DNA from: Caldilineaceae bacterium
Lineage (GTDB): Bacteria; Chloroflexota; Anaerolineae; Caldilineales; Caldilineaceae
Assembly: GCA_041391125.1 (NCBI GenBank)
Contig: JAWKON010000042.1
Location: 3,154 to 67,153 of the forward strand
Length of the DNA: 64,000 nucleotides
Reading direction: 5' to 3'
Shown here: one piece after another, positions 1 to 64,000 of the stretch
How the letters are laid out: each line of letters starts with the position of its first letter
Numbering within the stretch: the first letter of the stretch is position 1
Notes under the pieces: generated by a model
What the model was told of the DNA's origin: nothing
Seen by the model: only the letters and a program-made list of their open reading frames with translations
The model's database searches: none
Program-made: the position numbers and the translations under genes

Positions 1-92
1 TAAAATCTGTGTAATCTGTCAAGCTAATCCAGAAAACCTTTATAATTTGTGTATTTGTTTTTTTGGATTAGCCATAATAGAAGGATTTATCT

Positions 93-716
93 TTGGCTCT
101 CCAAAAACCAACCCTATTGGCGGCTGATTTTGAAGGCGTTTTTATCCCCGAAATTTGGATTGCCGTGGCCGAGCGCACGGGCATTGCGCAGCTTCGCTTG
201 ACCACCCGCGACATTGCCAATTATGATGAGCTGATGCAGATGCGTTTGGGCATTATTCGTGAACACAACCTGACCATCGCGCAAATTCAAGCCATAATCG
301 GTGAATTGGAGCCACTGCCAGGAGCATTCGACTTTATGCAGTGGGTGCGCATGCAAACCCAGTTTGTCATTCTCACCGACAGCTATTATCAGTTTGTGGC
401 CCCCTTTATGCCCAAACTGAACTACCCCACTATTTTTGCCCACATGTTGGAAATTGATGACGCCGGCATTATTACCGGCTATCACTTACGCACCGCAGAC
501 TCCAAGCGCAAGGCCGTGGAAGCATTTCGTGCAGCCGGTTTTTGCACAATGGCCACGGGCGATTCCTACAACGACACCACCATGCTGCTGGCGGCGGATA
601 AAGGCGTACTCTTTTGCCCACCGCCCAACGTCATCGCGGAATTCCCCCAACTGCCGGTGACCACAAACTATGCTGATCTCAAGGACCACGTTGTGCAGTT
701 TCTGGCTGCGGCCTAA
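93..716 (+). CDS. thrH: HAD-family phosphoserine phosphatase / homoserine phosphotransferase (ThrH-like)
   Basis: 207-aa ORF. It has an N-terminal HAD motif ([14 protein letters not shown]), TTRDI..YD..M and a C-terminal [10 protein letters not shown] motif. It is colinear over its full length with Pseudomonas ThrH as I remember it. The ORF track gives a non-ATG (TTG) start. Confidence 0.75.
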
Positions 717-740
717 CGCGCCGCACGGAGGTATTCCAGC

Positions 741-1193
741 ATGAAATCCACTGCGACCAAGCCCAAGAATAGCAATTCTACGGCGGAGCTGATCAGCACC
801 ATTGGCTATATTTTGGCCGTCTCCTATCCGGTGCTGGCCCTTTCCACCGGCGTACGCGCCATCTATCAGCTGCTCAACCCAGCCACCACCTACTATTTCC
901 CGCCCGCCATGAGTGGCGTGGCCGCCCTCTGCTACTTGGTGGCTACGATTGGCTTTGCCTATCGGCGCAAATGGTCGTGGTGGCTTTCGGTGGCTGTCCT
1001 GGGGCTGGAAACAGCGTTGACGCTGATCATCGGCATCTGGAGCTTTGTCGATCCCGCGCTGATCGGCCGCACAGTCTGGCGGCACTTTGGCGCCGACTAT
1101 GGTTACTTTCCCTTTTTTCAGCCAGTTCTTGGCCTGGTCTGGCTAATCTGGCCCGCAACGCTGCGTCAATATGGCTTTCGGGGTTCTGAATAG
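741..1193 (+). CDS. small integral membrane protein, function unknown
   Basis: 150-aa ORF with a GGAGG RBS 8 nt upstream of the ATG and about 4 hydrophobic helices. I recognise no motif. Confidence 0.5.
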
Positions 1194-1323
1194 CCGCGGA
1201 TTCTTTTGGATCGCATGTGGTTGACAAGAGCCGTTCTGCCTTATAGCGCCGCGGTCTGTTCACTTTGCTTTGCTATTTTGATGCCGCCCTCCAAACAGTA
1301 TTCATTTTGAATGGAGAATTCAC

Positions 1324-2327
1324 ATGCCGCAACCATTTCGCTTGGGCTTTCTGACCCATCTCGAAGGCAAAGGCAGCCCGCACCAAATTTACCAGGACGG
1401 GCTGAAACTCATCACCACCGCCGATCAGTTGGGCTTTGACGTATTCTGGATTGCCCAGCACCACTTTACCGGCCACGTGGGGCGCATGCCGTCACCTTTC
1501 CCCTTTCTGGCGGCGGCAGCGGAACGCACCAAGCAGATCCGCCTGGGCACCTCCATTGTGGTGCTGCCGCTGGAGACGCCGCTGCGCGTGGCCGAAGACG
1601 CCGCCGTGGTGGACACGCTGAGCGGTGGGCGGCTGGAACTGGGCGTGGGCAGCGGCAGCGACCCGGCCGAGTATGAAGCATTTGGGGGGGCGGGGGATCA
1701 GCGCCACCAGTTGACCACCAGCGGACTAGAGACGATCAAACGGGCTTTGCGCGGCGAAACGCTGGGTGAAAAGGGACAGCAATTTTTCCCGCCGGCGCCC
1801 ACGCTGCTCAATCGGCTGTGGCAGAGCGGGCTGAGCCAGGTCGGCGCCCAGTATGTGGCGCGCAACGAGGCCGGTCTGCTGCTGGCCAAGGCGGCCTGGG
1901 GGCCGGATGAGGCCACCGACAAGCTGCAGCTTCCGGTGGCGGAAACGTATCTGGAAACTTGGTCCAGTTCAACCATTCAGCCGCGCATTGGGCTCTCGCG
2001 GGCATCTATCTGGCGGCGGACAAAGAGAGCGCCCTGGCCCAAGTAGGCGACGGCGTCATGCACGATGTGGCGGCGCGCATCCGGCAAGGGTTGGTTCCGG
2101 AGGGGTTGTCTCTGGAGCGCTACGCCCGCTATACGCATCTGGCTTATGGGCATCCCGAAGAAGTGGCCGCCACCCTGGCGGCCGATCGCGTGCTGCCCCA
2201 CACGACCGATCTCATTCTGCAATTTACGCCCATCTTTCCGCCGCTGGATCAGGCGCTGCACATGATGGAGCAGATCGCGACCGTGATTGGGCCAGCCTTG
2301 GGTTGGCAACCGCACCGGAATGCTTGA
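1324..2327 (+). pseudogene. LLM-class (luciferase-like) flavin-dependent oxidoreductase, one frame shift near 1960-1990
   Basis: ORF 1324-2046 has the LLM N-terminus (FDVFWIAQHHF, LGTSIVVLP, GGRLELGVGSG). ORF 1959-2327 in another frame supplies the matching C-terminus (GIYLAADKESA...LILQF). GGAG RBS before 1324. Confidence 0.75.
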
Positions 2328-2349
2328 TGTAAAAATTTGAACGCAAGAG

Positions 2350-4510: not shown

Positions 4511-4765
4511 CTATTGGCGTGACGTTTTGTAACCACAGATTGCACAGATAACACAGATTTTGGCGCATAGATAGCGCGGCCACCTAATGCGGCTTGCACC
4601 CATGCAGTTCAATGTGTATATTGTAGCTGCTATTCTACCTTAATCAATCGCGTGAATCTAATCTTACCAATGGCGTTGTGATCAACCGATTGCCCAGACT
4701 TCGGTGTGCGCGCAGTCGAATGATTCAACCGATTTATGGGTTTCTTGCAAGCGTAGGAAAAACAA

Positions 4766-5482
4766 GTGAACAAAAACGAAATGCAACCTACCGGCCCCGC
4801 CGCTGATTTGGCGGGCAGCCTGCCGCTCTTTCCACCCCAGCCCGGCATTGCTTCCGACGGCCGCGTGCTGGGCAACGCTCTACGGCTGCCGGATTTTGGC
4901 CAGAAATATTTAGTCTTTAATCGCATTGGTGTGCCTGGCCAGGTCCACGTTTACCGGGCCGATTGCCGAGCCGGGGATCGACTGCGGGCGCAGATATTTG
5001 CCCCCGTCTTGCCGCTGGGCGGCAGCATCAGCCCGCGCTTCGCTATTGTGGCCCAAAGCCTGCCCTACAGCGCCGATGTCCACCAACTGCCCTTTGATTT
5101 ACCCGCCGGCTTTAGTGCAGTGGTGGCGCCGGAACACAGGAAACCTCTGGCGCCGGTCACCGATCTGCTTACGCGGGTCAACTACCATCCCGGCCCAGTG
5201 GTGGATACGCGCACATTGGTGGGCGGGCGTTGTTATGTGGTGGTGTGGAGCCCGCAAAACCAGATGGGCAAATATGTGCTGCAAACCGGTCACCGCTGGC
5301 CTGTCCGCCTGAGCTACTGGGCGCAGATCCCGCGCTTCTGGTGGCAGATTCGCGGCTGGTTTGGCCAAAGCCGCGCCGTGGCCTATATTGCGCTGACCGG
5401 GCTGCTGCTCGCAACCTTTTGGCTGCTGCTGCGTAATAGAGAGGGAGTTGAAGGAATGGACAATGACAAGGTGACTGGATGA
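4766..5482 (+). CDS. hypothetical protein with C-terminal TM helix
   Basis: 238-aa ORF with a GTG start and coding-like composition. No motif recognised. The last residues (DNDKVTG) are encoded by the GATGACAAG word repeat. Confidence 0.4.
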   Translation: MNKNEMQPTGPAADLAGSLPLFPPQPGIASDGRVLGNALRLPDFGQKYLVFNRIGVPGQVHVYRADCRAGDRLRAQIFAPVLPLGGSISPRFAIVAQSLPYSADVHQLPFDLPAGFSAVVAPEHRKPLAPVTDLLTRVNYHPGPVVDTRTLVGGRCYVVVWSPQNQMGKYVLQTGHRWPVRLSYWAQIPRFWWQIRGWFGQSRAVAYIALTGLLLATFWLLLRNREGVEGMDNDKVTG

Positions 5483-5541
5483 CAAGATGATACGGTGATT
5501 TTTTCAGACCCAGTCATCTTGTCATCCGATCATCTTGTCAT
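5463..5541. repeat. word hairpin, family GATGACAAG / CTTGTCATC
   Basis: The G-rich arm (ggatgacaagatgat) and its complement (atcatcttgtcat, catcttgtcatcc) flank a short loop, immediately upstream of the ArsA-type gene. Confidence 0.8.
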
Positions 5542-6787: not shown

Positions 6788-6805
6788 GACAATCATTTTG
6801 AACAT

Positions 6806-6854
6806 AAATCAAATAATCGGGCCGAGGCTTAGCCTCGGCCCGATTATTTGATTT
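6806..6854. terminator. bidirectional intrinsic-type terminator between convergent genes
   Basis: Perfect 23-bp stem (aaatcaaataatcgggccgaggc / gcctcggcccgattatttgattt) with a 3-nt loop and A/T-rich flanks on both sides. It lies between the stops at 6787 (+) and 6877 (-). Confidence 0.75.
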
Positions 6855-6876
6855 ATGGTTTAGCGAACATCCACCA

Positions 6877-7953
6877 TCATTTTCCAAACCCCTGCGCAAA
6901 CGTCCGAATCTCCTCGGCCCCGTCCAGCACGCCGATTTCCAGATGAAACTCGCGCACTTCGCCGGGCTGGATGTGTTGGAGCAAGCCGTGTTTGCGATTC
7001 CAGGCCCGGCCCAACATGCTGGCGTTGCCCGGCTCGACGCCGGTGACGTAAGTGCCGCGGTGGAAGTGCTGCCACTGGTTCACAATGGGGATTTCGTTGA
7101 TGGGGAAACTCCAGGTCAGCCCCAATTGCAGGTTGTCATTGATCAGCCCGACCTGCACGTTGCCGTCGGCGTCGGGACGCGGGCGGTGCACAAAGACGGC
7201 GTCGGACACATCGCGCTGCGGCGCTTTGGCCACCGTGTATTCATCCGGTCCGACTTCGCGATCTTCCAGCCATTCGGTCGTCTTGGCGCTGTTGATCAGA
7301 AAGCGCGTCCCCGCATCTAGCAGCGGGAAGCCGGGGTTGCAGTGATACACATACATAAAAGGCGAACGATCCACGCTGAGATTCTCCACGCGGTCGTGGA
7401 TGCGCAGCCGCTTTTCGCCCAGCACGGTGGAGATTTCGCGGGTCAGCTCCAAGTTGGCGCCAAAAACCACGGCCTCACGGATTTTGCCGCGCACGCGGAT
7501 CACATAGTCATCGCCCTCCCAACCGGCGTCGGCGACCACGTTTTTGGCGGGCAGATTGGCCAGCCGCCCGTGCAGACCCAGCTCTTCATTTTCTTCCTCG
7601 GGGTCCACTTCGGGGTGGCCGGTAAAGGTCATGCCGCAGCTTGTGACCAGCCCGCCGAAAAAGCTGCGCATCCAGCCGTAACCCTGTGGCTCGTAGAAGG
7701 CCGGGCCTATATCGCCCACGCTGCCGCGGAAGCAGAGCGACATGCCTTTGTAGTGGGCCGAAGCAATGTCCAGCGCCCGTCCCGGCAGAATGGAAAAGCA
7801 GAGACCCGAAGCGTTGAAGACCTCGATCAGGTCCGACCCGCGCTCGTTGCCTTCCACCAGTTCGGCCTTGCGGGCGTGGGCCACTTGGGACATATCGCCC
7901 ACCAGATCGAGCAGTTCGCGCTTGGTGTAGGTGCGTCCAAACAAATTGGGCAT
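6877..7953 (-). CDS. aldose 1-epimerase family protein (DUF4432-like)
   Basis: MPNLFGRTYTKRELL...SGLCFSILPGRALDI...HGRLANLPA pattern. I moved the start to the ATG at 7953 because AAGGAGG lies 6 nt upstream. The longer track ORF (to 8073) runs into a repeat. Confidence 0.75.
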   Translation of the reverse strand: MPNLFGRTYTKRELLDLVGDMSQVAHARKAELVEGNERGSDLIEVFNASGLCFSILPGRALDIASAHYKGMSLCFRGSVGDIGPAFYEPQGYGWMRSFFGGLVTSCGMTFTGHPEVDPEEENEELGLHGRLANLPAKNVVADAGWEGDDYVIRVRGKIREAVVFGANLELTREISTVLGEKRLRIHDRVENLSVDRSPFMYVYHCNPGFPLLDAGTRFLINSAKTTEWLEDREVGPDEYTVAKAPQRDVSDAVFVHRPRPDADGNVQVGLINDNLQLGLTWSFPINEIPIVNQWQHFHRGTYVTGVEPGNASMLGRAWNRKHGLLQHIQPGEVREFHLEIGVLDGAEEIRTFAQGFGK

Positions 7954-8001
7954 GGGTTTCCTCCTTGGTAACGTTGAATTTAGGGCAAAAGGGGTAAGGA
8001 A

Positions 8002-8064
8002 CCACAGATTGCGCAGATTATTTTGGGGAGACAGAAAATCTGCGTAAATCTGCGCAATCTGCGG
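8002..8064. repeat. word hairpin, family CAGATTgCgCAGATT
   Basis: ccacagattgcgcagatt (8002-8019) pairs with aatctgcgcaatctgcgg (8047-8064) at 17/18 positions. It sits directly after the stop of the TMEM43-like gene. Confidence 0.8.
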
Positions 8065-8069
8065 TTTGA

Positions 8070-9170
8070 TCAAACTGGATTCGTAACTGGCTGGCGCTGG
8101 CTATACCACCAGTACGCGCCGCCGCCGATGACCAGCAGCAGCAGGATTAGAATAATCGGCGAGTGGGCCACAAAGGAGATGATCATAATCGTCACCGACA
8201 GGACCACCGCCAAGACCAGCAGCACCAGTCGCACGGCCATGCGGCCCAGCCCGCCCACCAGCGGGATCACGCCGAGCATTTGGGTCAGCGGGCTGATGGC
8301 CAGCAGGAAGCTGATCCACATGAGGAGCGTGCCAAAGAAGCGCATGCCCCAAAGCAGCATCCTATATTCGTTGCCCATCTGTTCAATCGCCGCTTCCGGG
8401 CCGGAGGCAAAGGCGCGATAGAGCGTGTCGCCGCGGCGGTGGACGTAGGGCGCAATGCGGTTGTCGGCAAGCTGGCCAAAGGCGGTCACGTCCAGCCCTT
8501 CATCCACCACTTTGTACGAAATGCGCAGGTCGCCCACCGACGGTTCTTCCAGCAGACCATCACCCTCAAAGAGATATTTGCCCTCGGCATAGCGATTCGC
8601 GTCGGGCATGATAATGCCATCATCCAAAATCAATTCGCGGCTGGGCGGCATGGTGAGGCTGCGGGCGTCCAGCGTATAGGCGCCGATTTTGACGGTGGCC
8701 ACCGTCTTTTTGGTGGATTCGACAGTCAGCGGCGGGTTTTCATGGTCAGCGGGTACAGCGAATTTGGCCGAATCTTGCGGGCTGTCGGTCCAGCCCCGCT
8801 CATATTCATAGTCATTGGGCGCCTTATCGCCCGAACTGCTGCCGGATGAGCCTTTGGCGCCTTCGCGCTTGCGCTCGATCCAGGCGTACATTTCCACGTC
8901 GCGATTCAACGCCACGTACGGACCGGGCTGCAAATAGGGCGCATCGCCCAGCGGCTCATCGCTGCGCAACTTGCCACTCACCGCCACCAGCTTGCCTTCG
9001 GCCGCGCTGTCCACGCTTTCCGGCGACAAAATCACCGCATCTTTGGCCACGCGCCCAAAATCGACGCGCCCCTCATTCGTCCACAACAGATAAACCGCAC
9101 CCACAAACAGCAACGCCCCCGCCCCTACGCGGAACAGAACGCTGCCCAAACAACCGGAACTTCGGAACAT
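8070..9170 (-). CDS. TMEM43 (DUF1625)-family membrane protein
   Basis: An N-terminal TM helix with LWTNEGR, a long soluble middle part, and a C-terminal cluster of 3-4 TM helices. The architecture and N-terminal motif match bacterial TMEM43 homologues as I recall them. Confidence 0.6.
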   Translation of the reverse strand: MFRSSGCLGSVLFRVGAGALLFVGAVYLLWTNEGRVDFGRVAKDAVILSPESVDSAAEGKLVAVSGKLRSDEPLGDAPYLQPGPYVALNRDVEMYAWIERKREGAKGSSGSSSGDKAPNDYEYERGWTDSPQDSAKFAVPADHENPPLTVESTKKTVATVKIGAYTLDARSLTMPPSRELILDDGIIMPDANRYAEGKYLFEGDGLLEEPSVGDLRISYKVVDEGLDVTAFGQLADNRIAPYVHRRGDTLYRAFASGPEAAIEQMGNEYRMLLWGMRFFGTLLMWISFLLAISPLTQMLGVIPLVGGLGRMAVRLVLLVLAVVLSVTIMIISFVAHSPIILILLLLVIGGGAYWWYSQRQPVTNPV

Positions 9171-9197
9171 GTGTACTCACTTTCTGTTTACTGCATG

Positions 9198-9271
9198 AAA
9201 GGGGGAAAGGGGGAAAGGGTGAAGGGGAGCCGTTGAGCGATTCCCCCTTTCACCCCTTCACCCTTTCACCC
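9198..9271. repeat. word hairpin, family GGGGAAAGG/GGTGAAGGG
   Basis: gaaagggggaaagggggaaagggtgaaggggag ... ttccccctttcaccccttcaccctttcacccc, lying between two minus-strand genes. Confidence 0.8.
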
Positions 9272-9284
9272 CGTCATTTTTCTT

Positions 9285-10295
9285 TCACCAACGGAACTGA
9301 TGTGGCCCAAAATCGGCTTCGTAAAAGGCCGAGACCATGCGGCCGGGCGGCACGAGCTGATCGATGGCGGCGCGGTCTTCGTCAGTAATTTCGACATCCA
9401 GCGCGCCCAGGTTGTCCACGAGCTGCTCCATGGTGCGCGGACCGATGATGGGGCTGGTGACGCCCGGCTGGTGGATCACCCAGGCCAGCGCCAACTGGGC
9501 CACAGTGCAGCCTTTGGCAGCGGCTATGGGCTGCAAGCCTTCCACCACGTCGTAGCTCTCGGCGGTCTTGCGCGCCTCCATGCGAGCGTTGCCGGCCACG
9601 TCGGCATAGCGGGCGCCGGAGGGCGACGGATTTTCACGCGTATATTTGCCGGTGAGCAGGCCGCCGGCCAGGGGGCTCCACGGGATGGTGGCCACGCCGT
9701 AGGTTTGGGCCATGGGCAGCAGTTCGCGCTCAATGCGGCGGTCCAGAATGTTGTAGGGCGGCTGCTCGCATATAAAGCGGTTGAGCCCCAGCTCTTTGGA
9801 GACCCAGAGCGATTCCATAAATTGCCAGGCCGCATAGGTGCTGGTGCCAATGTAGCGCACTTTGCCGGCGCGGATCAGGTCGTCCAGCGCGCGCAGCGTC
9901 TCGTCAATGGGTGTGTCCGAGCGCGGGCGGTGCATCTGATAGAGGTCGATGTAGTCGGTTTGCAGACGGCGCAGAGAGGCGTCGCACTGCTCAATAATGT
10001 GGCGGCGGCTGGTGCCGGAGGCGTTGGGATCGTTGTCGTCCATGGCGCCGTGGACTTTGGTGGCCAGCACAATCTGGTGGCGCTTGCCGTTGCGCTTGAG
10101 CGCTTCGCCGGTCACCTCTTCGCTGCGCCCGCGCACGTAGACATTGGCCGTGTCCAGAAAATTGATGCCGGCGTCGATGGCGCGGTCGATAATCGCGTAC
10201 GAATCTTCAGGCGTGGTCTTGCCGCCAAACATCATGCAGCCCAGGCACAGCGGGCTGACTTTGGCGGCGGTCCTGCCGAGGGTTCGATATTGCAT
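9285..10295 (-). CDS. aldo/keto reductase
   Basis: MQYRTLGRT...VSPLCLGCMMFGG...AGINFLDTANVY...LYQMHRP are hallmark AKR motifs. Confidence 0.9.
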   Translation of the reverse strand: MQYRTLGRTAAKVSPLCLGCMMFGGKTTPEDSYAIIDRAIDAGINFLDTANVYVRGRSEEVTGEALKRNGKRHQIVLATKVHGAMDDNDPNASGTSRRHIIEQCDASLRRLQTDYIDLYQMHRPRSDTPIDETLRALDDLIRAGKVRYIGTSTYAAWQFMESLWVSKELGLNRFICEQPPYNILDRRIERELLPMAQTYGVATIPWSPLAGGLLTGKYTRENPSPSGARYADVAGNARMEARKTAESYDVVEGLQPIAAAKGCTVAQLALAWVIHQPGVTSPIIGPRTMEQLVDNLGALDVEITDEDRAAIDQLVPPGRMVSAFYEADFGPHQFRW

Positions 10296-10316
10296 GAGAT
10301 TTTTCCTTTCGTTTCT

Positions 10317-10617
10317 AGACTATGATTTTTGTGATTCGTTGATGAGCTATGATTCTGTTTGCCGGATAGCGGCAGCGAAATGACATCCAACATCGCCACG
10401 CGCCATCATAGCCCTTATAAAATCATAAAAATCCAGACTATGATTTTTGTGATTCGATGATGTGCTATGATTTTGTATGCCGGGTAGCGGCAGCGAAATG
10501 ACATCCAACAGCGCCGCGCGCCATCATAGCCCTTATAAAATCATAAAAATCCAGACTATGATTTTTGTGATTCGATGATGTGCTATGATTTTGTATGCCG
10601 GGTAGCGGCAGCGAAAT
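10317..10617. repeat. 2.5 tandem copies of a 118-bp stem-loop element
   Basis: The units are 10317-10434, 10435-10552 and a truncated 10553-10617. Each unit folds on itself (gatttttgtgatt/aatcataaaaatc and gctatgat/atcatagc). The array abuts the stop codon at 10618. A related single copy lies at 44397-44512. Confidence 0.9.
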
Positions 10618-11694
10618 TCACACCGCCCCGCTTACACTATCCGTGCGCACCCATTCCCCGCTTTCCACCGAGCGCGCAATGGCCGCCAGCGTGCGCATCA
10701 CGGCAATGCCCTCGTCCACGTCGGCGCCCTGCTGCGGCGCGCCGTCCAGAATGGTTTCGGCAAAGCCCTCCACTTGCCGCTTATACGAAAAACCGTCCTC
10801 GCCCAGCGGTCGGTGATATTGGCCATCTGCCGTGGAAAAGCACTCGACATCGCTGGATTTGTAAAACCAGGGCAAATAAGCGCGCCCGCGCACGCTGCCA
10901 TGTTCGCCGAAAACTTGAAAGCCCTCTTCAAAATCACCGCGGATGGGGATGATCAAATCAAGATGGCCCAGGCTGCCGTTGGCAAATGCCGCCGCCACAA
11001 ACCAGCAATACGAATCAAAGCGCTGCGCCAGCCGCGCCTGCACCGCCTCGATGTCACCGCCCAAAAAGCGGGCCAGATCGACCAGATGGCTGCCGTGGGT
11101 CAGCATGAAATAGCGCGCTTTGTCGGCTTTGGGGTTGCCCGCCGGCCGCCGCACCTGGGCGCTGGATTCCATGATCGGCTGCAAGTTGTCGGTCATGGTG
11201 TAGCGGTAGACCGAATCATAATACCACACTTTGAGCGCCTGCACCTGCCCCATCTGCTCCTGAATAAAGCGCCGGGCAAAGGCGATGCCCGGATCAAAGC
11301 GCTTGTTCTGCCCCACTTGCAGCACCAGTCCGCTCTGCTGCACCGCATCGCGCAGCGCCAGGCACTCATCCACGCCCACGCTCAGCGGCTTTTCCACCAG
11401 CACATGTTTACCGGCGGCAATGGCCTGCCGCGCCAGCGCCACGTGAAACTGATCGGCCACGCCGATAATCACCGCCTCCACGTTGGGATCATCCAGCATG
11501 GCGGCGTAATCCGTATAGGTCACCCGCGGCTGGTGGATGGCGGCGACGCGGCCCAGCAGGTCCGCCGCCACGTCGCAAATGGCGTAGAGTTCAGCATTGC
11601 GCGCCTTGCGGCAAGCCTCAAAGTGGGCCGCTTGTGCAATGGGTCCGGCGCCGAGCACGCCAATCCGCAACAGCCGATTTTCTTTTTGAATCAT
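10618..11694 (-). CDS. Gfo/Idh/MocA family oxidoreductase
   Basis: Rossmann N-terminus LRIGVLGAGPIAQ..H and the EKPL motif (HVLVEKPLS). Confidence 0.9.
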   Translation of the reverse strand: MIQKENRLLRIGVLGAGPIAQAAHFEACRKARNAELYAICDVAADLLGRVAAIHQPRVTYTDYAAMLDDPNVEAVIIGVADQFHVALARQAIAAGKHVLVEKPLSVGVDECLALRDAVQQSGLVLQVGQNKRFDPGIAFARRFIQEQMGQVQALKVWYYDSVYRYTMTDNLQPIMESSAQVRRPAGNPKADKARYFMLTHGSHLVDLARFLGGDIEAVQARLAQRFDSYCWFVAAAFANGSLGHLDLIIPIRGDFEEGFQVFGEHGSVRGRAYLPWFYKSSDVECFSTADGQYHRPLGEDGFSYKRQVEGFAETILDGAPQQGADVDEGIAVMRTLAAIARSVESGEWVRTDSVSGAV

Positions 11695-11700
11695 TGGTAT

Positions 11701-11890
11701 TGATCAACAGATTACACAGATTTGAAAGATTAAAATATCTACTCAACAGGATCTCATGTGGATGACCCGCTTTGGGTTCGATACGGCCGGAAACTGCACC
11801 GGCCTACTCAACCGCCGCTTGCCTTGTCAACCACATGAGATCCCAAAGAGCCGACAAAAAAATCTGAGAAATCTGCGTAATCTGTTGATC
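11701..11890. mobile_element. 190-bp MITE-like composite element with 22-bp terminal inverted repeats
   Basis: The TIRs gatcaacagattacacagattt (11702-11723) and aaatctgcgtaatctgttgatc (11869-11890) match 21/22. A nested perfect 13-bp IR (11749-11761 / 11831-11843) encloses a half copy of the GGTTGAGTAG...GTATCGAAACC element (11762-11824). It has no coding capacity. Confidence 0.6.
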
Positions 11891-11904
11891 CTTCCCCTCT
11901 CTGT

Positions 11905-12976: not shown

Positions 12977-13018
12977 AGATCGCGTGTTTTCTGTTTGGTT
13001 AGTATTATATTTGTTACT

Positions 13019-13147
13019 GTGGCGGGTGGCGAGTGGCGGGTGGCGTGTATTGGTTATAAGCACCGAGGAGTAGGATGCTAGACACCTTTTTTGTTGACGG
13101 TCCCAAGACGAGTTTACGCCACCCGCCACTCGCCACCCGCCACCCGC
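13019..13147. repeat. word hairpin, family GGTGGCGAGTGGCG (long loop)
   Basis: gtggcgggtggcgagtggcgggtggcgtg (13019-13047) is complementary to acgccacccgccactcgccacccgccacccgc (13116-13147). A single G-rich arm of the same words lies at 28148-28190. Confidence 0.8.
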
Positions 13148-13431
13148 TCAAAACGTGCTCTCCGGCGTGGTCGACGGACACCAGCGCGCCCAGCAGATAA
13201 TCAATCAGCGCCTTGCTGCGCCTCGGGCGTGCCGATGCGGTTGGAGGGCGTCGACGGCGTTGGAAAGCACGTAGCGGTTTTCATCTTTGAGCACCTGTTG
13301 GAGGGCGGGAATCGCACTCCCGCTGCGCACCCCAGCCGCGCCAGTGAGAGCGCGCCGGTAAAGCGCACTTGGCCGTCGGCGTCGCGCAGCGTTTGCGGCC
13401 AGCGCATCGACCACACCATCGCCCGCCACAT

Positions 13432-49739: not shown

Positions 49740-49830
49740 TTATAGCTGTATTGCTGTATTGCTGTATTGCTGTATAAAGGGTTGTCTCAGTGAGAAATAC
49801 AGCAAGACAGCGATAAGCTATACAACAACA
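49740..49830. repeat. word hairpin, variant family GTATTGCT
   Basis: cttatagctgtattgctgtattgctgtattgctgtat ... aaatacagcaagacagcgataagctatac. Confidence 0.8.
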
Positions 49831-51019: not shown

Positions 51020-51104
51020 GATTGAGTATTCCGTGGCTGATTTTTTCACGAAACAAGCTCCACGCATTCTATTACTCAATACTCGATAAAAAAGAGACAC
51101 TCCC

Positions 51105-52655: not shown

Positions 52656-52719
52656 GGGATGATAAGATGAAGGGATGACAGGATGACATGGTGACTATTC
52701 ATCTTGTCATCTTGTCATA
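52656..52719. repeat. word hairpin, family GATGACAAG
   Basis: ggtaagggatgataagatgaagggatgacaggatgacatggtga ... ttcatcttgtcatcttgtcat, lying between the SBP and permease genes. Confidence 0.85.
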
Positions 52720-53678: not shown

Positions 53679-54512
53679 ATGTTTCGCAAACAACGGGGCG
53701 CCAGCCTGCTGCCCAATTACTTAATCCTGCTGCTGCTGACGGCGTTCGCCATCGGGCCGCTAATGGTGCTGGGCTTCAATTCGGTCAAGGATCGCACCGA
53801 AATTGCCGCCAATCCGCTGGGGCCGCCCAGCGAAATCCATTTGGAGAATTTCAGCAACGCCTGGCGCGAAGGCAAGTTTGCCACCACAGTGACCAACAGC
53901 GCAATTCTGGTCATCTCCACCGTGATCGCCGAGCTGATCTTTGCTGGCATGGCGGCCTACAGCCTGGCCCGGCTCAATCCGCCGGGCGAGAATGTTTTTA
54001 TGCTTTACATGCTGGTCGGCTCCACGCTGCCGGTCTGGCTCTTTCTGGTGCCGCTCTTTTCGCTGTGGCGCATGTTGGGGCTGATCAACAGCCTCTTTGG
54101 GCTGATCCTGCTCTATACGGCCTTCAATTCGCCCTTCTCCATTTTTCTGCTGCGCTCGTTTATGATACAGGTGCCGCGCGATTTTGATGACGCCGCCCGC
54201 GTCGACGGCGCCAATACGTTTCAGGTCTTTACGCGCGTGCTGCTGCCGCTGACCTGGCCCGGCTTTCTCACCGTGGGCCTGATTGTGGGGCTGGGCGTGT
54301 GGAGCGAATTCCAGATTGCGCTCATCTTTGTCTCCAAGCCGGAACTCTTCCCGGTCACCACCAGCTACTACAACTTTACCGAACGCTTTGGCCGCGACTG
54401 GTCGCTCACCAGCGCCGCCGCCGTCATTATGATCGCGCCCATTCTGGTGCTCTTTTTGGGTCTGCAGCGGCGGTTTATTGATGGGCTGACGCAAGGCGGG
54501 TTGAAAGCGTGA
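53679..54512 (+). CDS. carbohydrate ABC transporter permease (MalG/UgpE-like)
   Basis: Six TM segments and the EAA loop (VPRDFDDAARVDGANTFQVFTRVLLP). Confidence 0.9.
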   Translation: MFRKQRGASLLPNYLILLLLTAFAIGPLMVLGFNSVKDRTEIAANPLGPPSEIHLENFSNAWREGKFATTVTNSAILVISTVIAELIFAGMAAYSLARLNPPGENVFMLYMLVGSTLPVWLFLVPLFSLWRMLGLINSLFGLILLYTAFNSPFSIFLLRSFMIQVPRDFDDAARVDGANTFQVFTRVLLPLTWPGFLTVGLIVGLGVWSEFQIALIFVSKPELFPVTTSYYNFTERFGRDWSLTSAAAVIMIAPILVLFLGLQRRFIDGLTQGGLKA

Positions 54513-54676
54513 TTTACGATCTCAGATTTACGATTTACGAAGGCGTCGCTTGTAACCCACGGGGAAAGTGTGCGTTGCACCGCCTCGGATCATTTAATAC
54601 TATGTGACAGCGTGGCAGGCGGTGCGATGCACACGGCTTAAACCATTTACGATTTCAGATGTACGATTTACGAAGG
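54511..54676. repeat. direct GATTTACGA-word repeats flanking a 17-bp inverted repeat
   Basis: gatttacgatctcagatttacgatttacgaagg (54511-54543) and atttacgatttcagatgtacgatttacgaagg (54644-54676) flank gtgtgcgttgcaccgcc / ggcggtgcgatgcacac (54568-54584 / 54618-54634). Confidence 0.85.
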
Positions 54677-58707: not shown

Positions 58708-58843
58708 GAACGGCAGTTGAGCAGCCCTCGGCAGTTTGAGTCCTTGGGAGCGCAGCGGCAGTATCGAAACCAGAGTGAGCGGGTTTGACCCGTTTGGTCT
58801 CGATACGCTGCAAACGGCCGCAGCTACTCGACCGGCACTCGTC
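58708..58843. repeat. palindromic element, full copy
   Basis: gaacggcagttgagcagccctcggcag...gcagtatcgaaaccagagtgagcgggtttgacccgtttggtctcgatacgctgc...gcagctactcgaccggcactcg. Confidence 0.85.
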
Positions 58844-58927
58844 TGCACGGTCCGCCAGTCCTTCGCTTGATACATATGGCGGTAAATTCAGCCGTCCCCT
58901 GAACGTCTAAACGCAGTTTTAGGGCAT

Positions 58928-59230
58928 CCAGGGACGCGGCTTGACAAGCTTAGCCCTCGAGGATCATAAAAGACCCAATCAGAGAATTGATTGGGGTCTT
59001 TTGCTGCATTCCTTATAGAGATCACCCTTAAACATGGCACAAATGCAGGTTGTTTTTATGCGAGCCATTTGTGCCATGTTTATGGTTTGTCCATTAGTCG
59101 TACCAAATATACCACAACAAACAAGTTTGGGGGCATTCAAGGGGACGCGGGCTTCGACAAGCTTAGCCCTCGAGGATCATAAAAGACCCCAATCAGAGAA
59201 TTGAGTGGGGTCTTTTGCTGCATTCCTTAT
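58928..59230. repeat. two ~90-bp direct repeats, each containing a terminator-like hairpin
   Basis: Copy 1 is 58928-59016 and copy 2 is 59139-59230 (..gacgcgg.ctt.gacaagcttagccctcgaggatcataaaagacccc.aatcagagaattga.tggggtcttttgctgcattcctta). Both contain the stem gacccc.a.tca/tga.tggggtc followed by TTTT. Copy 2 ends at the stop codon of the cytochrome gene. Confidence 0.85.
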
Positions 59231-61513
59231 TTGCCGAAGATCGACATGATCTTCTCGATGACTGTGCTGAGCGTGCTGCCGGGATCTTCGCCCGCTTCGA
59301 TCAGATAACCGCCTTGCTTGGTGTGTTGGTTAAAGGAGATCAGGTCGCCCGCTTTGTCCTCATTGATCAACTCGGCGCGGTGGCATCCACCACAGGCGCG
59401 CGAGGCGGGGCCGGTGACGTAACTCGGTATGTTGCCGATGTTGCGGTCCCAACCGTTGATCGGGTCGGTGGCCGAAAGCAGACCGGGCAGCGCCTTGAAC
59501 TGATCCGGCACGTTGTAAGTACCCGTCACGTGGCAGGACTCACAATCTGTGCTGCCATGTTTGGGATAGGGGAACTCAATGTGATGCTGATAGTGCATGG
59601 CTTGCACCGGGTCGCTAAAGTCAATATCGCCAATATCGAAGGCCTGGAAGGAGTGAATCGCATGGATATAGGAATCGATGGAGCGCGACTGCAATTCCAG
59701 ATGCGAACCGCCGCTCTTGGTGATGTGGCACATTTTACAGACCACAATGTTGCCCCCGCGATCCGGTGAATGGAAGGTGGTGGCCAGCGCTTCATGGCAG
59801 TTGTTGCATCCATCCGCCACCTTGGCGACAGGCGTGTAAAAGTCATCGGCAAAGGCATTGGCGCCCAGGTCAAACGTCCGCGACGGCGCATTGAGCGCAA
59901 CCTGGACGCCCCCCGATTTCTCCAGATCCGGCATGACGCCAATCTCCACTCTTTTGACGACGCCGGCCGACACCAAACCAAACCAATTCGACAAATCGGC
60001 CGTCACTTCCCAACTGCCGTCGGCGGCCAATACGGTCGTAAAGCGCGGGTGCTCCGTACCCACCACATATTCCAGCGCTCTTTGATCGTTGTTGTCAATG
60101 GCGCCGTCGCCGTTATCATCGGTCAGGCGCTCATGGGGGCCAATGATGAAATTCTTCGTGTCGTACCCATACAGACCGACCATCAACGTGGGCGTAATAT
60201 CCGCCACATCGAGCCCGGGGACATCCGGTGACTCGGCCGCGCTAAAGGTGACCGTGAGCATGGCGCCATCCAGAGATGCGCTGTTGATGGTAACGGAAAT
60301 GGCGTCGGAATACTTGAGCCCAGCAGTGGTGTAGATCACGTTGTTATAGCCGCTGTGAATTTCCCTAAAGCTTGGCCCCTCTTCGCCCTCACCATGACAC
60401 CCCGTACAGGACTTGGTGTTTAGGTCCATGCCATCATGCTCCGACGACTTGGCCAGGAGGGTCTGCAAGGCGAGTTTGTTGGTGCCATGCCTCGGAACCG
60501 GTCACAGGATGGCAGCTTTTACAGGTTTCTACGGTAAAGTTCGCATCGGTCAGCCATCTTGTCCAGTTTGCCCTCGTGACAGGTCAGCACAGTTGCCATG
60601 ATTGCGGATACGGGAACTCCATGGAGTGCGACATATGCACGTCGTTCATCAACCTTGTTTTATAGGCGTACTGGGTCTCCTGCTCGGGAGTCAATGTAAC
60701 TTCCTTGGCCAGATACGAAGCTGCCAGCGCCGGGTCGTCGACCAAAAGCTGCCATTCCACATGGCCGCCTTCCCCATTATCCAGATGGCAGCCCTTGCAG
60801 ACATAAAAATCCGTGGTGGGATCGTGGTTGACCTCGCCATAGATGTACCTGTGCTTGAGAAAAGGTGAAGTATGACACTTTTCACAGCCGGCCGCATTGG
60901 CGGCGGAAACAGATAATCCACCCCGGCGCCGGTTTGCAGCACTGGCAAAGGGATATTTCACTTCGCCGGCGCGCCGGCAGTTGACCGGACCGTCTCATCC
61001 GCACCGTACAACACGATGAGGCCCGCCATATTGGTGACATCCGGGGCCTCGCCGACCAGAGTGCTCGTACATCCGTCGGCGCCATCGCAGGTTGGGGATC
61101 GCCCAGCAGCGATAAGCGTTCACCGACCGGCTCAAACTGAATTTTTCACCGGTGTACGGTGTAAAGTAGATGCCCAGCGACTCCACTCGTCGGCATCAAT
61201 CGGTGACAGTCATCTTTGGTGATTTCCGAACGTCACTGTGCTCGTATCGGGCACCGTAATGCATACGCCAAATCGGTGACCTGAATGACGCCATCCTGGA
61301 TACACCATCATAAGACGCCTGATGTTTGGCACCGGCGTCTTTATGACAGTGGTGCACTGATCCTGGCTGCACATCCACTGTGGCAACAGTCGTGAGAGTC
61401 GGGCGGGACGGCTGACAGCGGCGCCCGGCCACGCCCACGCAGCCCGCCAGCCCAACCATGACTATAAAGAAGACAAAAATAAGGGAGAGCCCCCCCACAA
61501 GTTTCGTTTGCAT
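59227..61513 (-). pseudogene. multihaem (about 10 CxxCH) c-type cytochrome lipoprotein, several frame shifts
   Basis: AAGGAG RBS and the lipoprotein signal MQTKLVGGLSLIFVFFIVMVGLAGC at 61513. CxxCH motifs: CTGCH, CNNCH, CKMCH, CESCH, CGGCH (ORF 59227-60468) and CEKCH, CKGCH (ORF 60584-60961). CKSCH is in-frame in a short fragment at ~60500-60520. CATCH (60577-60592) and CTTCH (61343-61356) are restored by single-nt corrections. Confidence 0.8.
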
Positions 61514-61888
61514 AAATATCTGCTCCTTGCTTCGTTACAGGGATTTACCGCATCGTCGCGTAAGGATTTGGATTGTATGTCTCATTACATTAAATAGAAA
61601 ACATCATAAGGCATTTTCCCTATCCAATACACCTGCCACTTGGCTAGTCATTACCTGCTACCTAATAAGTCTTTGGCGCTGGTCAGCGGCATTGATGGCG
61701 GCAAGCGGCCGGCCATATGAGTTCGAGGGCGATCCAAAGTGCGCCTGATCATAGCGTTGGAGGGTGGTGGGGCGTGGGGGATAGTGTGGGTGGGGGATGG
61801 ATTGTAGGGGATGGTGGTGAGGGGAGTCATCGGGATTTTCCCACATATGGAGCAAGCTAAGGCATTTTGGCGCCTAAAACAGGGAGAT

Positions 61889-62012
61889 GAACGGCGGTTG
61901 GGATAGGCTCCCGGCAGTTGGAGGCCGTATCGAAACCAAAGTGAGCGGGTCGACCCGTTTGGTCTCGATACGTGCGGAAACTGCCCCGCACTACTCGACC
62001 GGCACTCGCTTA
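61889..62012. repeat. palindromic element, full copy
   Basis: gaacggcggttgggataggctcccggcag...ggccgtatcgaaaccaaagtgagcgggtcgacccgtttggtctcgatacgtgcgg...cgcactactcgaccggcactcg. Confidence 0.85.
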
Positions 62013-62152
62013 AATGGTGCGCGCATTCCTTAGCTTGATACCTATGGGCGTCATTGATTTTCCCAAAAACGAAAAAACCGCTTGACATATATGCAGCCAA
62101 ATCGTACAATCTGGATGGTCCAACCTATTCCGTATAAATCAGGGAGACGAAG

Positions 62153-62396
62153 ATGTCCCAAACGTGGCGACCACGCGGAAGCGCAAAATCGGCTGAGCAA
62201 GCTCATTGACGCCGCCCTTGCGCATGGGCCGCAGATCATCACCAGGCACGGCAGCGCAGTTGCAGTTGTGTTGGCCTATGATGAGTATCGAATGCTGACG
62301 GCATCGAAACAAAAGATGTCGGAATTTTTCCGGCAATCCCTGCTGGCAGAGGCAGAGATTGATTTGACACGCGATAAGAGTGAAAACTGTATATGA
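62153..62396 (+). pseudogene. Phd/YefM-family type II antitoxin, one frame shift after about codon 5-10
   Basis: The RBS agggag precedes ATG 62153 (MSQTW...). ORF 62082-62396 continues with EAQNRLSKLIDAALAHGPQIITRHGSAVAVVLAYDEYRML....EFFRQS.L....IDLTRDKS, typical of VapB/Phd-type antitoxins. Confidence 0.65.
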
Positions 62397-62406
62397 AGGA
62401 AGACAG

Positions 62407-64000
62407 ATGGTGACCGCACACGAACCAAACCAGACCCGGACGAGCAAACTAATCCCTTAGATATGCAAGTGATCACGGCTGGGCAGAATGTTCAACACAG
62501 CATTTTGGTGACCGGTGACAACAACCAGGTGATTTTGGGAAGTGTGGCAACTCAACGCGGCTACCCAGAGCGCTCGCCACGCCTCAGAAGTGGCTCCCAG
62601 CCCCGGTATCCCTGCAAGAATACCACGTCTTTCTGGCCTCTCCGGGCGATGTGAATGAGGAACGCACTGGCCGTGCGGCGCTTTTTTGACCAGTACAATC
62701 GCACCGTGGCCAGACCCAACTTCGGCGTCCAGTTTACGGTCATTGACTGGGAGAACTATGCGACGGCGGGCGTGGGCAGACCGCAAGAGTTAATCGAATG
62801 GCAAACGCTCGCAAAATATCGGGGTTCGCTGGCGCTGGTCATCGGTCTCCATGAGGCAACGCTTTTGGCATCGCCGACGGTGACCATGAGTCCGGCACGA
62901 GGCAGAATTTCGCTGGGCCATGCAGAACTATCTATGCACGGCTTCCCGAAATCAAGTGGTTCTTTCGCAAAATTGAGAGTTTTCGACGCCCTCCACCGAT
63001 CCGGACAGATCCTGCGGTCGAGCAGTGGAAAAGGGTCCAAACCTTCAAAGCTAGCTTGGGTGACAAACGGAACAACAGGGGGACTTTCCGCCCCCCATTA
63101 CAAAGAATTCACGGACCTGCAAAATTTCCGCGATGCATTGCAGGACGATCTGCTGCTCTTTGGCTCAATACCGCGGAACGGCCGTGGGTGCAAATCTTGC
63201 CGCTGCTCGAATCTTCCGCCGTTGCCTCTACAACGCAACCCCCCGCTGCATATTATCAAGCCCTTTGTAATGACTTCAGTGGTTGGACACGTCGGCATCG
63301 ACAATGACTGCTCGTTTCGCATTCCGCTGAGCGAGATGTACGTGCGGCTGCGCGTGATGATGGATGAGGACACAAGCGACGCCGACAGCGACTATGATGG
63401 CCGCCCGATTGACATTCAGGCGGCCCTTGCCCGCTACCAGAATCTAGTCATTGTGGGCGATCCGGGCAGCGGCAAGTCGACTTTCTGCGCTTTATTGCGT
63501 TGATGATTAAGGCGCCAAAAGGCGAACACGATCTAGACCTGGCCCAAGAGCGGCTCAACCTGTACCCCCGCCGATTCCCATCTTTGTCTCGCTTTGGGAC
63601 CTGGCCGACTTTGCGCGCCAGCAGCCACAATCTACGGTGAAACTACCAGTCCTTCTCGAATTCATATGAGACCGGCTTGCGAGTATGGGTTGTAAACTCT
63701 CGAAAGAAGAGCTTAAAAACGTGGCTTGATGACGATGCCTTTGTATCCTGCTATTTGACGGTCTCGATGAAGTCCCAACCGACATGGGCGTGCACTGTAA
63801 GTCGACTGGTCGAAAGCCGGTGTAACTGAATATCCGAAAAATCGCTATGCGATTACCTCACGCAACTGCTTCTACACGGGCGACACCATCCTACGCGGTA
63901 ACTTTGTGCGCTGCGATATTCAGCCCTTTCAACCAGACTGATCGGGCAGAATTTCTACGCAACTGGACCGCATTGCTTCTTCAAGACGGCTCCGGCTGAT
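62407..64000 (+). pseudogene. STAND NTPase: DUF4062-like N-terminal domain + NACHT P-loop domain; frame-shifted and truncated by the window end
   Basis: YHVFLASPGDVNEERTAVRRFFDQYN...VIDWENYA..G.GRPQELI...IGL..QRFGSPTG..ESGT is DUF4062-like. Then come LVIVGDPGSGKSTF (Walker A, ~63455), LLFDGLDEVP (Walker B, ~63750), YAITSR and IQPFNQTDRAEFLRNW, across three frames. G+C looks lower than the backbone by eye. Confidence 0.6.

Follow-up and report, generated by a model that had tools for sequence, protein, structure and literature searches.

The window analysed here, the whole 64-kb stretch of DNA (64,000 nucleotides) at positions 3,154 to 67,153 of contig JAWKON010000042.1, comes from a metagenome-assembled genome (MAG) of a Caldilineaceae bacterium in the phylum Chloroflexota (GenBank assembly GCA_041391125.1). 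The gaps between its genes are populated by hairpins whose arms consist of tandem copies of a word of 7, 8 or 9 nt; a typical element has two to five words, a loop of 11-70 nt and then the complementary words. These word hairpins are a real and abundant repeat class, and one that we found undescribed for this phylum: a full-text literature search returned no description of such repeats in Chloroflexota. The reading that we favor, and to which we give about an even chance, is that they could be the Chloroflexota counterpart of the short tandemly repeated repetitive (STRR) hairpins of cyanobacteria and of the repetitive extragenic palindromes (REPs) and bacterial interspersed mosaic elements (BIMEs) of enterobacteria, slippage-prone repeats whose arms are spread or homogenized by a process specific for the words and which, transcribed, behave as REP-like RNA barriers and spacers. 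Counts of elements given below refer to the window unless stated otherwise.

The window has a GC content of about 58%, and its closest genomes are all Caldilineaceae or other Chloroflexota; for the alpha-glucan phosphorylase of the window (859 aa), the top match in a species-representative collection has 69% amino acid identity. ORF 19473-20165 is 100% identical to a hypothetical protein (R2911_29865) of a Caldilineaceae MAG. No tRNAs were found in the window. Many of its genes are split by indels of 1-2 nt (1324-2332, 18632-21036, 21040-22400, 39406-41340, 44566-47429 and 59227-61500), among them a luciferase-like monooxygenase gene (1324-2332), recJ (18632-21036), a gene resembling glycosyltransferase family 39 (GT39-like, 21040-22400) and iolB/iolD (44566-47429), and naive maps of open reading frames (ORFs) are therefore unreliable. 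Several indels lie at homopolymers, such as T5 versus T6 near 47385, and there is also a 2-nt gap near 19165; the frameshifts reflect either an error-prone long-read assembly or genuine pseudogenes. The crude gene map, at 72.5% coding, overstates intergenic DNA because so many genes are broken, and some of its apparent gaps are broken genes.

Relatives were fetched through two protein searches and are labelled as loci L0xx. The protein of the GFO/IDH family encoded at 49850-51019 has 94% amino acid identity to its relative in L081, 93% in L082-L085, which come from four European Nucleotide Archive (ENA) assemblies, and 87% in L086. L088 is syntenic with window positions 6885-20375 at 86-90% nucleotide identity and is better assembled than the window; L089 is 78-84% identical. 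L081, L086 and L088 are NCBI MAGs. A metagenome scan for TCATCTTGTCATCTTGTCA gave at least 120 stretches, from which 80 loci were fetched, 47 of them distinct full hairpins.

Abundance and stability of the word hairpins

Under strict thresholds the window holds 16 hairpins (score of at least 14), where 30 dinucleotide shuffles give 0.1 on average and never more than 1, and 16 arrays of period 6-10, where they give 0.4 on average and at most 3; all 16 strict arrays lie outside gene calls. Tandem Repeats Finder (TRF) reports dozens of arrays of period 7, 8 or 9, the hairpins rank among the longest matches of the inverted-repeat finder, and the complete ones fold strongly in RNAfold, from -21.9 to -83.8 kcal/mol. 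At least 12 distinct word families are present in the window genome. An earlier note, made from the letters alone, had listed many of these sites; its words are found at every one of them, and the perfect 25-bp stem that it reported at 2341-2416 pairs 2350-2374 with 2392-2416. Its list lacked the ATGATTTTT-word family (10317-10617, 44395-44514) and a non-word, REPIN-like family, and one of its tandem words, GAGTGCGATGCAC, is instead a 13-mer motif. The recurring two-arm design holds for about 17 complete sites, whereas about 15 listed sites are single arrays that lack a partner arm and fold weakly (0 to -9 kcal/mol, with two reaching -15 to -16). The claim that almost every intergenic gap carries such a hairpin was too strong. 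At lax thresholds an array or hairpin falls in 24-27 of the 56 called gaps of at least 20 nt, and after correction for broken genes we estimate that about 60% of true gaps carry a word element. In L088, 12 of the 14 gaps of at least 100 nt contain a word hairpin, and "most gaps" is a fair description for this genus.

The many frameshifted genes of the window raise the suspicion that the elements are assembly artefacts of an error-prone long-read MAG. This is almost certainly wrong. The same gene arrangement around the GFO/IDH gene occurs in the four independent ENA assemblies, with an identical hairpin in L082 and L084; homologous elements are present in L081, L086, L088 and more than 100 metagenome contigs; and the elements occur in records of cultured Herpetosiphon strains (L061, L062). 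Word arrays with their inverse partners are found in Caldilineaceae, Anaerolineae, Herpetosiphon and Litorilinea loci and are nearly absent from Thermotogota, Spirochaetota and Burkholderiales loci returned by the same query.

Words, arms and loops

Copies of one family at different loci are homologous (self-BLAST; family alignments A6 and A7), and in two pairs the loop is common as well: GGTGAyTT...CAG at 5463 and 45400, and GAATCTTGTwTCGAT at 17366 and 31164. The first pair belongs to the GATGACAAG family, whose full hairpins lie at 5463-5541 (+; -46.8 kcal/mol; alignment A7), 45399-45488 (+; -44.4 kcal/mol for 45400-45488) and 52656-52719 (+; -26.7 kcal/mol), with a single, weakly folding array at the end of iolD (47401-47438, +). 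The second pair has words of period 7: GTATTGCG/ACACGCA with a nested inner hairpin at 17366-17476 (-56.6 kcal/mol) and 6.9 copies of GTATTGCG/GTATTGAG at 31164-31287 (+; -49.5 kcal/mol for 31164-31282). A hairpin of a GTATTGAG-like family lies at 51007-51087 (+; -21.9 kcal/mol). At 10317-10617 a 118-nt hairpin element of ATGATTTTT/AAAATCAT words is itself present in 2.6 tandem copies (96% matches; TRF score 553); self-BLAST matches it to 44390-44532, a related copy upstream of iolB that the inverted-repeat finder places at 44395-44514, and L088 carries one copy (8746-8865) in the orthologous gap between the aldo-keto reductase (AKR) and GFO genes.

The CAGATT family forms a full hairpin at 8000-8066 (-; -35.3 kcal/mol for 8002-8064) and two neighboring hairpins in the divergent spacer between the MlrC and PhyH genes, one of 72 nt at 14676-14747 and one of CAGATT-type (CGCAGATT) words at 14780-14842 (-69.7 kcal/mol combined over 14677-14842). 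Weakly folding single CAGATT arrays are scattered at 2-19 (the window edge), 4531-4561, 18592-18623, 28910-28941 and 37255-37294. Elements of this family also nest: TGATCAACAGATTACACAGATTT termini bound both the 72-nt hairpin at 14676-14747, which has no core, and a 190-nt composite at 11700-11890 (-; inverted-repeat finder), whose interior is a REPIN-like core of about 110 nt (11743-11852), a copy of the second, non-word palindromic family described below. The words recorded earlier at 11702-11723 and 11869-11890 do exist, as the two termini of this one composite.

Termini common to a 72-nt and a 190-nt element (TGATCAACAGATTACACAGATT), conserved arms around variable interiors, and differences in presence and absence between relatives (L088 has one hairpin more, and a slot is empty in L089) are features expected of classical miniature inverted-repeat transposable elements (MITEs), in which case the elements would be deletion derivatives of a DDE-type insertion sequence and the word arrays its transposase-bound terminal inverted repeats. 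We consider this quite unlikely. No target-site duplication flanks the copies inspected, arm length differs by whole words, many sites are single arms, and the genes that do lie between inverted CAGATT arrays, a DUF3500 gene and a ferric-reductase-like gene (26825-28941) and a Zn-dependent alcohol dehydrogenase (Zn-ADH) gene, are not transposases.

Among the metagenome TCATCTTGTCATCTTGTCA matches many arms are perfect and identical, TGACAAGATGACAAGATGACAAGATG being one example, while the loops show no relationship to one another and the GC content of the contigs spans 47 to 69%. Arms of 26-37 nt recur unchanged in dozens of contigs of differing GC, and the perfect 8-nt word GATGACAA/TTGTCATC is kept across many of them (GC 0.47 to 0.69). 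Arms of AACCRCAGATTGCGCAGAT are likewise joined to different loops at window 8000, window 14780 and L088 4082. Identical arms with unrelated loops imply something acting on the words, whether a transposase or recombinase that recognizes the arms, ectopic gene conversion or a binding protein, and the idea of a sequence-specific reader of words is somewhat strengthened by their occurrence across many genomes.

Another account would dispense with both mobility and function. Slippage together with intrastrand template switching or fold-back repair would build and mirror the words locally, the palindromes being fragile sites and the similarity of words across loci reflecting a limited mutational vocabulary. 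Several observations fit such local by-products. At three metagenome loci (L100, L107, L109) a 37-nt arm contains a variant word that is mirrored at exactly the corresponding position of the other arm (GACAGGAT, ATCCTGTC); words change gradually within single metagenome runs (CCCCTTCA to CCTTGTCA to TCTTGTCA); single arrays occur alongside hairpins; the unequal word numbers of the two arms at 49738-49818 indicate that arms slip independently; and neither a transposase (in the ORFs scanned) nor target-site duplications (around the copies inspected) were seen. Local events do not readily explain the loop sequences common to 5463/45400 and 17366/31164 or the same 26-37-nt arms in dozens of contigs of differing GC, and replacement of one family by another at fixed boundaries between 98% identical flanks (see below) would be hard to achieve by point-wise slippage. 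Altogether we think this account rather unlikely.

Some further regularities concern the words themselves. Of 16 window hairpins, 13 combine a G- or purine-rich 5' arm with a C-rich 3' arm, an arrangement that both strands show alike, and several 5' words look like Shine-Dalgarno sequences (GGAGG, AAGGTGA) with partners that look like anti-Shine-Dalgarno sequences (CCTCC, CACCTT); the opposite arm order occurs in some relatives (L053, L059 and L088 17801-17824). Single GATGACAAG-type arrays often stand directly after other, non-complementary words (metagenome loci L091, L096, L108, L113, L116, L123-L125), namely GAGAACC, AAACGTA, GATGAAC, GGGGTCA and CGATCTT. Comparison of the words suggests that the families GGGGAAAGG/GGTGAAGGG and GATGACAAG may be joined by stepwise word mutation. 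We also considered, and rejected as a general design, that the words would place a stop in each of the three frames: GATGACAAG and GTATTGAG do so, but GGGGAAAGG, GGTGGCG and CGCAAAGGG do not.

Anchoring at stop codons

Elements of the window mostly begin at or within a few nucleotides of the upstream stop codon, and their distal end is usually 15-50 nt ahead of the next start codon. The distance to the stop is 0 at 13147, 28148, 31164, 45400, 47401 and 52656, 3 nt at 8066, 7 nt at 49740, 9 nt at 2341, about 10 nt at 9271 and 14 nt at 11890; at 5463, 26825, 51007 and 54511 the element overlaps the stop. The hairpin at 2341-2416, built of CGCAAAGGG/CGCAAGAGG words of period 9 (+; -52.9 kcal/mol), follows the stop (2332) of the luciferase-like monooxygenase ORF (Pfam). 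At 5463-5541 the upstream stop, TGA at 5480-5482, lies within the first arm, and an ArsA-like gene begins 20 nt downstream. The CAGATT hairpin at 8000-8066 adjoins the TMEM43 stop, and the gap between the AKR and TMEM43 genes contains a hairpin of GAAAGGGG/GTGAAGGG words of period 8 (9196-9271; -; -49.3 kcal/mol). The composite at 11700-11890 follows the stop of a window-specific Zn-ADH gene. The element at 13019-13147 (-; -83.8 kcal/mol; GTGGCGG/GTGGCGA words of period 7 with a super-period of 14 and 28-bp perfect arms) begins at the TGA stop of the PhyH-HEAT gene, a stop inferred from the L088 alignment. Further along, a single GGCGAGTGG/GGTGGCG array (28148-28190, +) lies directly 3' of the TAG stop of the DUF3500 gene, the first base of 31164-31287 directly follows a stop codon that ends at 31163, and 51007-51087 overlaps the stop of the GFO/IDH gene.

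Arrays can thereby supply the last codons of an ORF, as the earlier note had observed for three genes. This holds for DNDKVTG* (5482) and for DYTDFTD* (26856), which is encoded by the single CAGATT array at 26825-26854 (+) in ORF 25399-26856; RMRDDKMTG* (47430) hangs on the T5/T6 homopolymer difference from the relatives, and in L081 and L082 the iolD stop is a TGA immediately before the array.

The anchor holds outside the window too. Among the 47 distinct metagenome hairpins, a frame of at least 90 codons ends between -22 and +15 nt from the first paired base in 42, and at the modal offset, -3, the first word's TGA serves as the stop codon. On 37 of 76 testable sides an ORF of at least 150 codons terminates between -40 and +20 nt, compared with 6.1% for random positions (p ~1e-24).

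Three of the gaps occupied by hairpins lie inside operons: between iolB and iolD (45399-45488, directly after the TGA stop), between the aldehyde dehydrogenase (ALDH) and GFO/IDH genes (49738-49818, GCTGTATT words; +; -37.6 kcal/mol for 49740-49830), and between the solute-binding-protein (SBP) gene and the first permease gene (52656-52719). Both the starts near stop codons and the sites within operons, which had been noticed earlier, are seen in the window and in its relatives. Stable, GC-containing hairpins directly after genes might be intrinsic (Rho-independent) terminators, a role that had also been proposed. We judge it very unlikely. Inspection of the tails by eye showed no U-tract on the sense strand behind any word hairpin of the window; the loops of 11-70 nt are far above terminator loop size; a terminator scan reported 27 sites in the window compared with 22.5 +/- 4.2 in shuffles, with no word hairpin among them and its sole strong match at a non-word palindrome (6803-6857); and terminators of -40 kcal/mol inside conserved operons such as iolB-iolD-ALDH-GFO would abolish downstream expression.

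The pairing within the stems has a strand bias. In 26 curated hairpins whose sense is known from the upstream gene, stem mismatches on the sense strand comprise 31 G·U and 10 A·C (binomial p=0.0015); an A·C on the sense strand is a G·U on the antisense strand. Individual examples are 45399-45488, with six G·U pairs on the sense strand and none antisense, and 5463-5541, with three versus one. Of 12 window hairpins, 10 fold more stably as the sense strand (sign test p=0.04). From this bias we infer that the elements are probably transcribed in the direction of the gene, and it would be compatible with selection on RNA pairing. Rfam gave no match at the gathering score, and at E<=1 only far-sub-threshold eukaryotic miRNA precursor models, which are generic long hairpins.

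Elements inside genes

Some elements lie in coding sequence, which the earlier note had not seen. One variable slot is in recJ, between the DHH motif and ADAIVNPK. It holds 27 ordinary codons in L087, whereas four CAGTGGGA words and four ACGCAAC words are translated in frame as part of an intact ORF in L088. In the window it is a GGGGAAA/CCCCTT hairpin that lies within recJ (19188-19279; +; -43.3 kcal/mol for 19196-19275), and the frame stays open across it provided that the 2-nt gap near 19165, seen on comparison with L088, is an assembly error. Single arrays of GATTTACGA (21837-21870, +) and TTCCCCT (21913-21944, +) lie in the open frame of the frameshifted GT39-like gene, a putative assignment made by eye from the translation. 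Other single arrays nearby are GGTCAGTG in 4.9 copies (21126-21166) and TTCACCT in 3.3 copies (21224-21262), both + and mutually non-complementary, and a GAAAGGGG array at 22196-22232 (+; TRF; weak fold). Just past the YceI domain region of ORF 28997-30274 is a full hairpin of GTAGAGGGGTGGAGG words (29727-29800; -49.9 kcal/mol).

Turnover between relatives

Orthologous slots retain their boundaries yet change word family at a neutral divergence of only about 20% (identity at 4-fold degenerate sites is 0.78-0.82 between the window and L088). Nine slots can be compared with L088: four hold the same family, four another family, and one is partly changed. In the TMEM43/AKR slot the GAAAGGGG hairpin of the window is replaced by a GACAAGAT/GACAAGGT hairpin with identical boundaries, and similarity between the two loops (window 9196-9271 and L088) is too weak to claim homology. 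The slot of 17366-17476 contains an expanded member of the same family in L088.

The ALDH/GFO slot illustrates how fast this can be. Here the window has four copies of GCTGTATT, L081 a homologous, heterogeneous TATTGC(T/G) hairpin, L082-L085 a GGATAAAGG/GATGACAAG hairpin (without a difference between L082 and L084, the pair that was aligned), and L086 GGTGACAAG, whose first word includes the TGA stop. Over 3.3 kb upstream, L081 and L082 align without a gap at 98.2% identity, and downstream they agree at 95.8%; what lies in between, from the stop to the Shine-Dalgarno sequence, is unrelated. Word number changes as well: the 5' arm has four perfect GCTGTATT words in the window and three heterogeneous ones in L081, and the window hairpin has fewer words in its 3' arm than in its 5' arm.

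Whole elements are also gained and lost. The TMEM43/DUF4432 slot contains one hairpin in the window, two in L088 (the CAGATT hairpin of the window with one extra word, plus an adjacent hairpin of CGCCAAGAG words) and none in L089. In the PhyH/GFO slot L088 has a GTGCGTG hairpin, L089 a CAGAGTACACAGATT hairpin, and the window a GGTGGCG hairpin, a 1-kb Zn-ADH gene and the CAGATT composite. Gain and loss, changes in word number and family swaps in orthologous gaps are thus all seen between relatives.

The words might instead be a recognition code, with the arrays serving as multimeric DNA or RNA sites for a word-specific protein and the hairpin being secondary. The constancy of GATGACAA/TTGTCATC across contigs of GC 0.47 to 0.69 while loops vary would fit, as would the conservation of the two CAGATT hairpins in the divergent MlrC/PhyH promoter spacer: 93% of 14676-14747 and 90% of 14780-14842 are conserved in L088, together 124 of 135 positions (92%) versus 145 of 191 (76%) in the rest of the spacer (Fisher p=1.8e-4) and about 80% at 4-fold sites. 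ATGACA repeats, moreover, score as -35-like hexamers. Such a code would need many readers, however, given at least 12 word families in one genome and a largely species-specific vocabulary; orthologous slots swap family with the neighboring genes unchanged; and no candidate protein is encoded beside the elements. We regard it as unlikely.

Two larger differences between relatives border on word elements. A 1.4-kb segment of the window (11697-13150), with a Zn-ADH-like gene at 11905-12951 (local GC 65%), is absent from L088 and L089 and is bracketed by a word hairpin on one side and the CAGATT composite on the other. About 700 nt between iolD and ALDH (47441-48131) is missing in L081 and L082, the junction being the exact end of the GATGACAAG array; it resembles what is left of a small gene, the last codons of which persist in these relatives. 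Another composite arrangement lies at 54511-54676 (+), where direct GATTTACGA arrays at 54511-54543 and 54644-54676 surround a hairpin of another family (54568-54634; -38.5 kcal/mol), with the permease TGA stop as the first word of the first array. The bracketing 33-nt direct repeats are identical at 30 of 33 positions, and the layout could reflect a long duplication upon insertion or a tandem duplication of array plus hairpin.

A non-word repeat family and other features

The window also carries a separate, non-word family of imperfect palindromes, 110-125 nt long, in which the modules GTATCGAAACC/GGTTTCGATAC and CGGCGGTTGAGTAG/CTACTCAACCGCCG are conserved. Full copies lie at 16440-16553 (-), 36988-37123, 58757-58879 and 61889-62006, and half copies at 11743-11852, 18476-18586 (-), 23360-23429 (-) and 28792-28872; L088 has a copy, reverse-complemented, at about 1157-1304. 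The family, with eight copies in the 64 kb of the window, is often flanked by CAGATT arrays and has no Rfam match. A small stem beside CTAC (GTAG) varies in sequence between copies with its pairing kept, and the family looks like a GTAG-tagged REP or REPIN, as far as its sequence goes.

Two perfect or near-perfect palindromes at 6803-6857 and 32399-32458 have arms of 27 and 29 nt and a GC-rich core, with T-rich tails on either strand. Clearly different from the word hairpins, they resemble canonical bidirectional intrinsic terminators; the first lies between convergent genes. At 26899-27042 a 49-nt unit is present in 2.9 copies (95% matches), upstream of or overlapping the 5' end of the twin-arginine (TAT)-signal DUF3500 gene and adjoining the GAGTGCGATGCAC motif and a CAGATT array. 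Between a PfkB-like gene and the rest of the inositol cluster, 39406-41340 is a low-GC island (about 48% versus 58%) that holds pieces of an ORF resembling a P-loop ATPase (...IFIGPNGAGKSNL...), which may be a defence or mobile gene in decay.

A model for the word hairpins

In the model that we favor, arrays would grow and shrink by replication slippage, and a word-directed, sequence-specific process would spread or homogenize arms between loci, for which a putative transposase, a putative recombinase and ectopic gene conversion among the copies are candidates. Elements would persist only where they break no gene or promoter. Transcribed together with the upstream gene, they would fold into long RNA stem-loops that most likely block 3'-5' exonucleases, like REPs, and would serve as structured intercistronic spacers that tune operon expression, not as terminators.

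A number of our results weigh against this model. Hairpins also occupy divergent spacers, which have no 3' ends: three in the window (14676, 14780 and 17366), and all three divergent gaps of L088. Arrays lie in frame inside RecJ, where a 3'-end role is impossible, and there they must be tolerated insertions, not dedicated 3'-end modules. L089 has few word hairpins and one empty slot, so that individual sites can do without one. A classical mobile unit would keep its interior, which is at odds with identical arms around unrelated loops, and a pure RNA stabilizer would not need identical arms. An automated comparison of sense and antisense stability over about 90 loci was not significant (12 versus 6, p=0.17), and the G·U bias could stem from transcription-associated C-to-T mutation on the non-template strand instead of selection. 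As for mobility, Pfam scans of 28 window ORFs, including the genes bracketed by inverted CAGATT arrays and that of the window-specific 1.4-kb insert, revealed only housekeeping domains and domains of unknown function, with no transposase and no REP-associated tyrosine transposase (RAYT), and the copies inspected are not flanked by target-site duplications. An analogy with integron attC sites, where each gene has a hairpin behind it, was rejected: in relatives the neighboring genes form syntenic housekeeping operons, and R'/R'' core sites are not apparent.

A more radical proposal, which we consider unlikely too, is that a dedicated, sequence-specific system writes or reads the words and so marks where reading frames end. 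On the writing side, a templated repeat-adding or copy-correcting enzyme would install an array and its mirror image at stop codons; on the reading side, a modular protein would read 7-9-nt words on mRNA. Such a system would account for identical multi-word arms across many genomes with unrelated loops, for the exact mirroring of variant words in the other arm, for the frequency with which the first TGA of the first word is the stop codon, and for family switching within a slot whose boundaries are preserved.

Whichever model holds, filamentous Chloroflexota offer an especially clear and abundant version of short dispersed repeats, with features that can be tested: the stop-codon anchor, conserved arms with free loops, and very fast replacement within preserved boundaries among strains of 80-98% identity. 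If the hairpins are truly REP-like RNA barriers, they would be a general tool for operon tuning in a poorly studied phylum, and if a sequence-specific agent writes or reads the words, this would be new biology. There are practical consequences as well. Hairpins and arrays mislead gene callers, with ORFs running into or through them; they can add peptide segments to proteins such as RecJ; and they are hypervariable markers for strain typing in metagenomes.

Comparison with known repeat systems

The word elements resemble MITEs in being short, non-coding, bounded by inverted repeats and polymorphic for presence and absence; they differ in that no target-site duplications were seen around the copies inspected, no related transposase was found in the ORFs scanned, and arm length is variable. 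Rickettsia palindromic elements (RPEs) can sit in frame in genes and be translated, as are the arrays in the RecJ loop of L088. RPEs, however, are units of 100-150 nt with a conserved sequence instead of word arrays, and the word elements described here are mostly extragenic. TAACTGA heptamers of Beggiatoaceae, cyanobacteria and Bacteroidetes are abundant, position-biased intergenic repeats for which a post-transcriptional role has been proposed; they are nearly all direct, with one inverted set among 170, and lie just upstream of start codons (PMC4679880). Our elements, in contrast, are commonly inverted pairs and are anchored at the upstream stop codon.

REP and STRR repeats have been known for more than 30 years, and their origin and function are still debated. 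The likeness to heptamer STRR repeats that the earlier note had seen is a good fit: in filamentous cyanobacteria, STRR runs form intergenic hairpins between hupS and hupL and upstream of hoxW, and those between hupS and hupL have been proposed to stabilize the transcript or to couple translation (PMC2670836). Common to both are tandem runs of short words dispersed in intergenic DNA that form hairpins between genes of one operon. The window elements come from Chloroflexota, however, have periods of 7, 8 and 9 instead of heptamers only, and draw on other word sets, so that they agree with STRRs in dispersed tandem words and operon hairpins and depart from them in taxon and words. Several window words share the CAGT/GGTCA flavor of STRR consensus sequences and otherwise differ. 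We know of no documented STRR case of stop-codon abutment, family swapping at fixed slots or in-frame occurrence.

REPs of enterobacteria and Pseudomonas are transcribed, stabilize upstream mRNA and are mobilized by RAYT transposases, which are IS200/IS605-like; their classic case, malE-malF, is a solute-binding-protein gene followed by a permease gene. The word hairpins are similarly imperfect, extragenic palindromes with many copies (in the 64 kb and in related loci), placed after stops and between operon genes. Their arms, however, are tandem words instead of single units of 20-40 nt, they have no GTAG or CGTC tag (alignments A6 and A7), and their loops are not conserved; within the window a conserved CTAC/GTAG beside a covarying stem is confined to the separate non-word family (for example 16440-16553). 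REPs, BIMEs and REPINs are described as dispersed palindromes and proposed to be non-autonomous mobile DNA (PMC3116915; PMC3733652). A REP-like nature, also suggested in the earlier note, fits the position of the word hairpins after stops, inside operons and between SBP and permease genes, as well as their sense-strand G·U bias. Stem-loops in that same SBP/permease position are reported to set the stoichiometry of ABC transporters in Clostridia (PMC9045158; PMC4423207).

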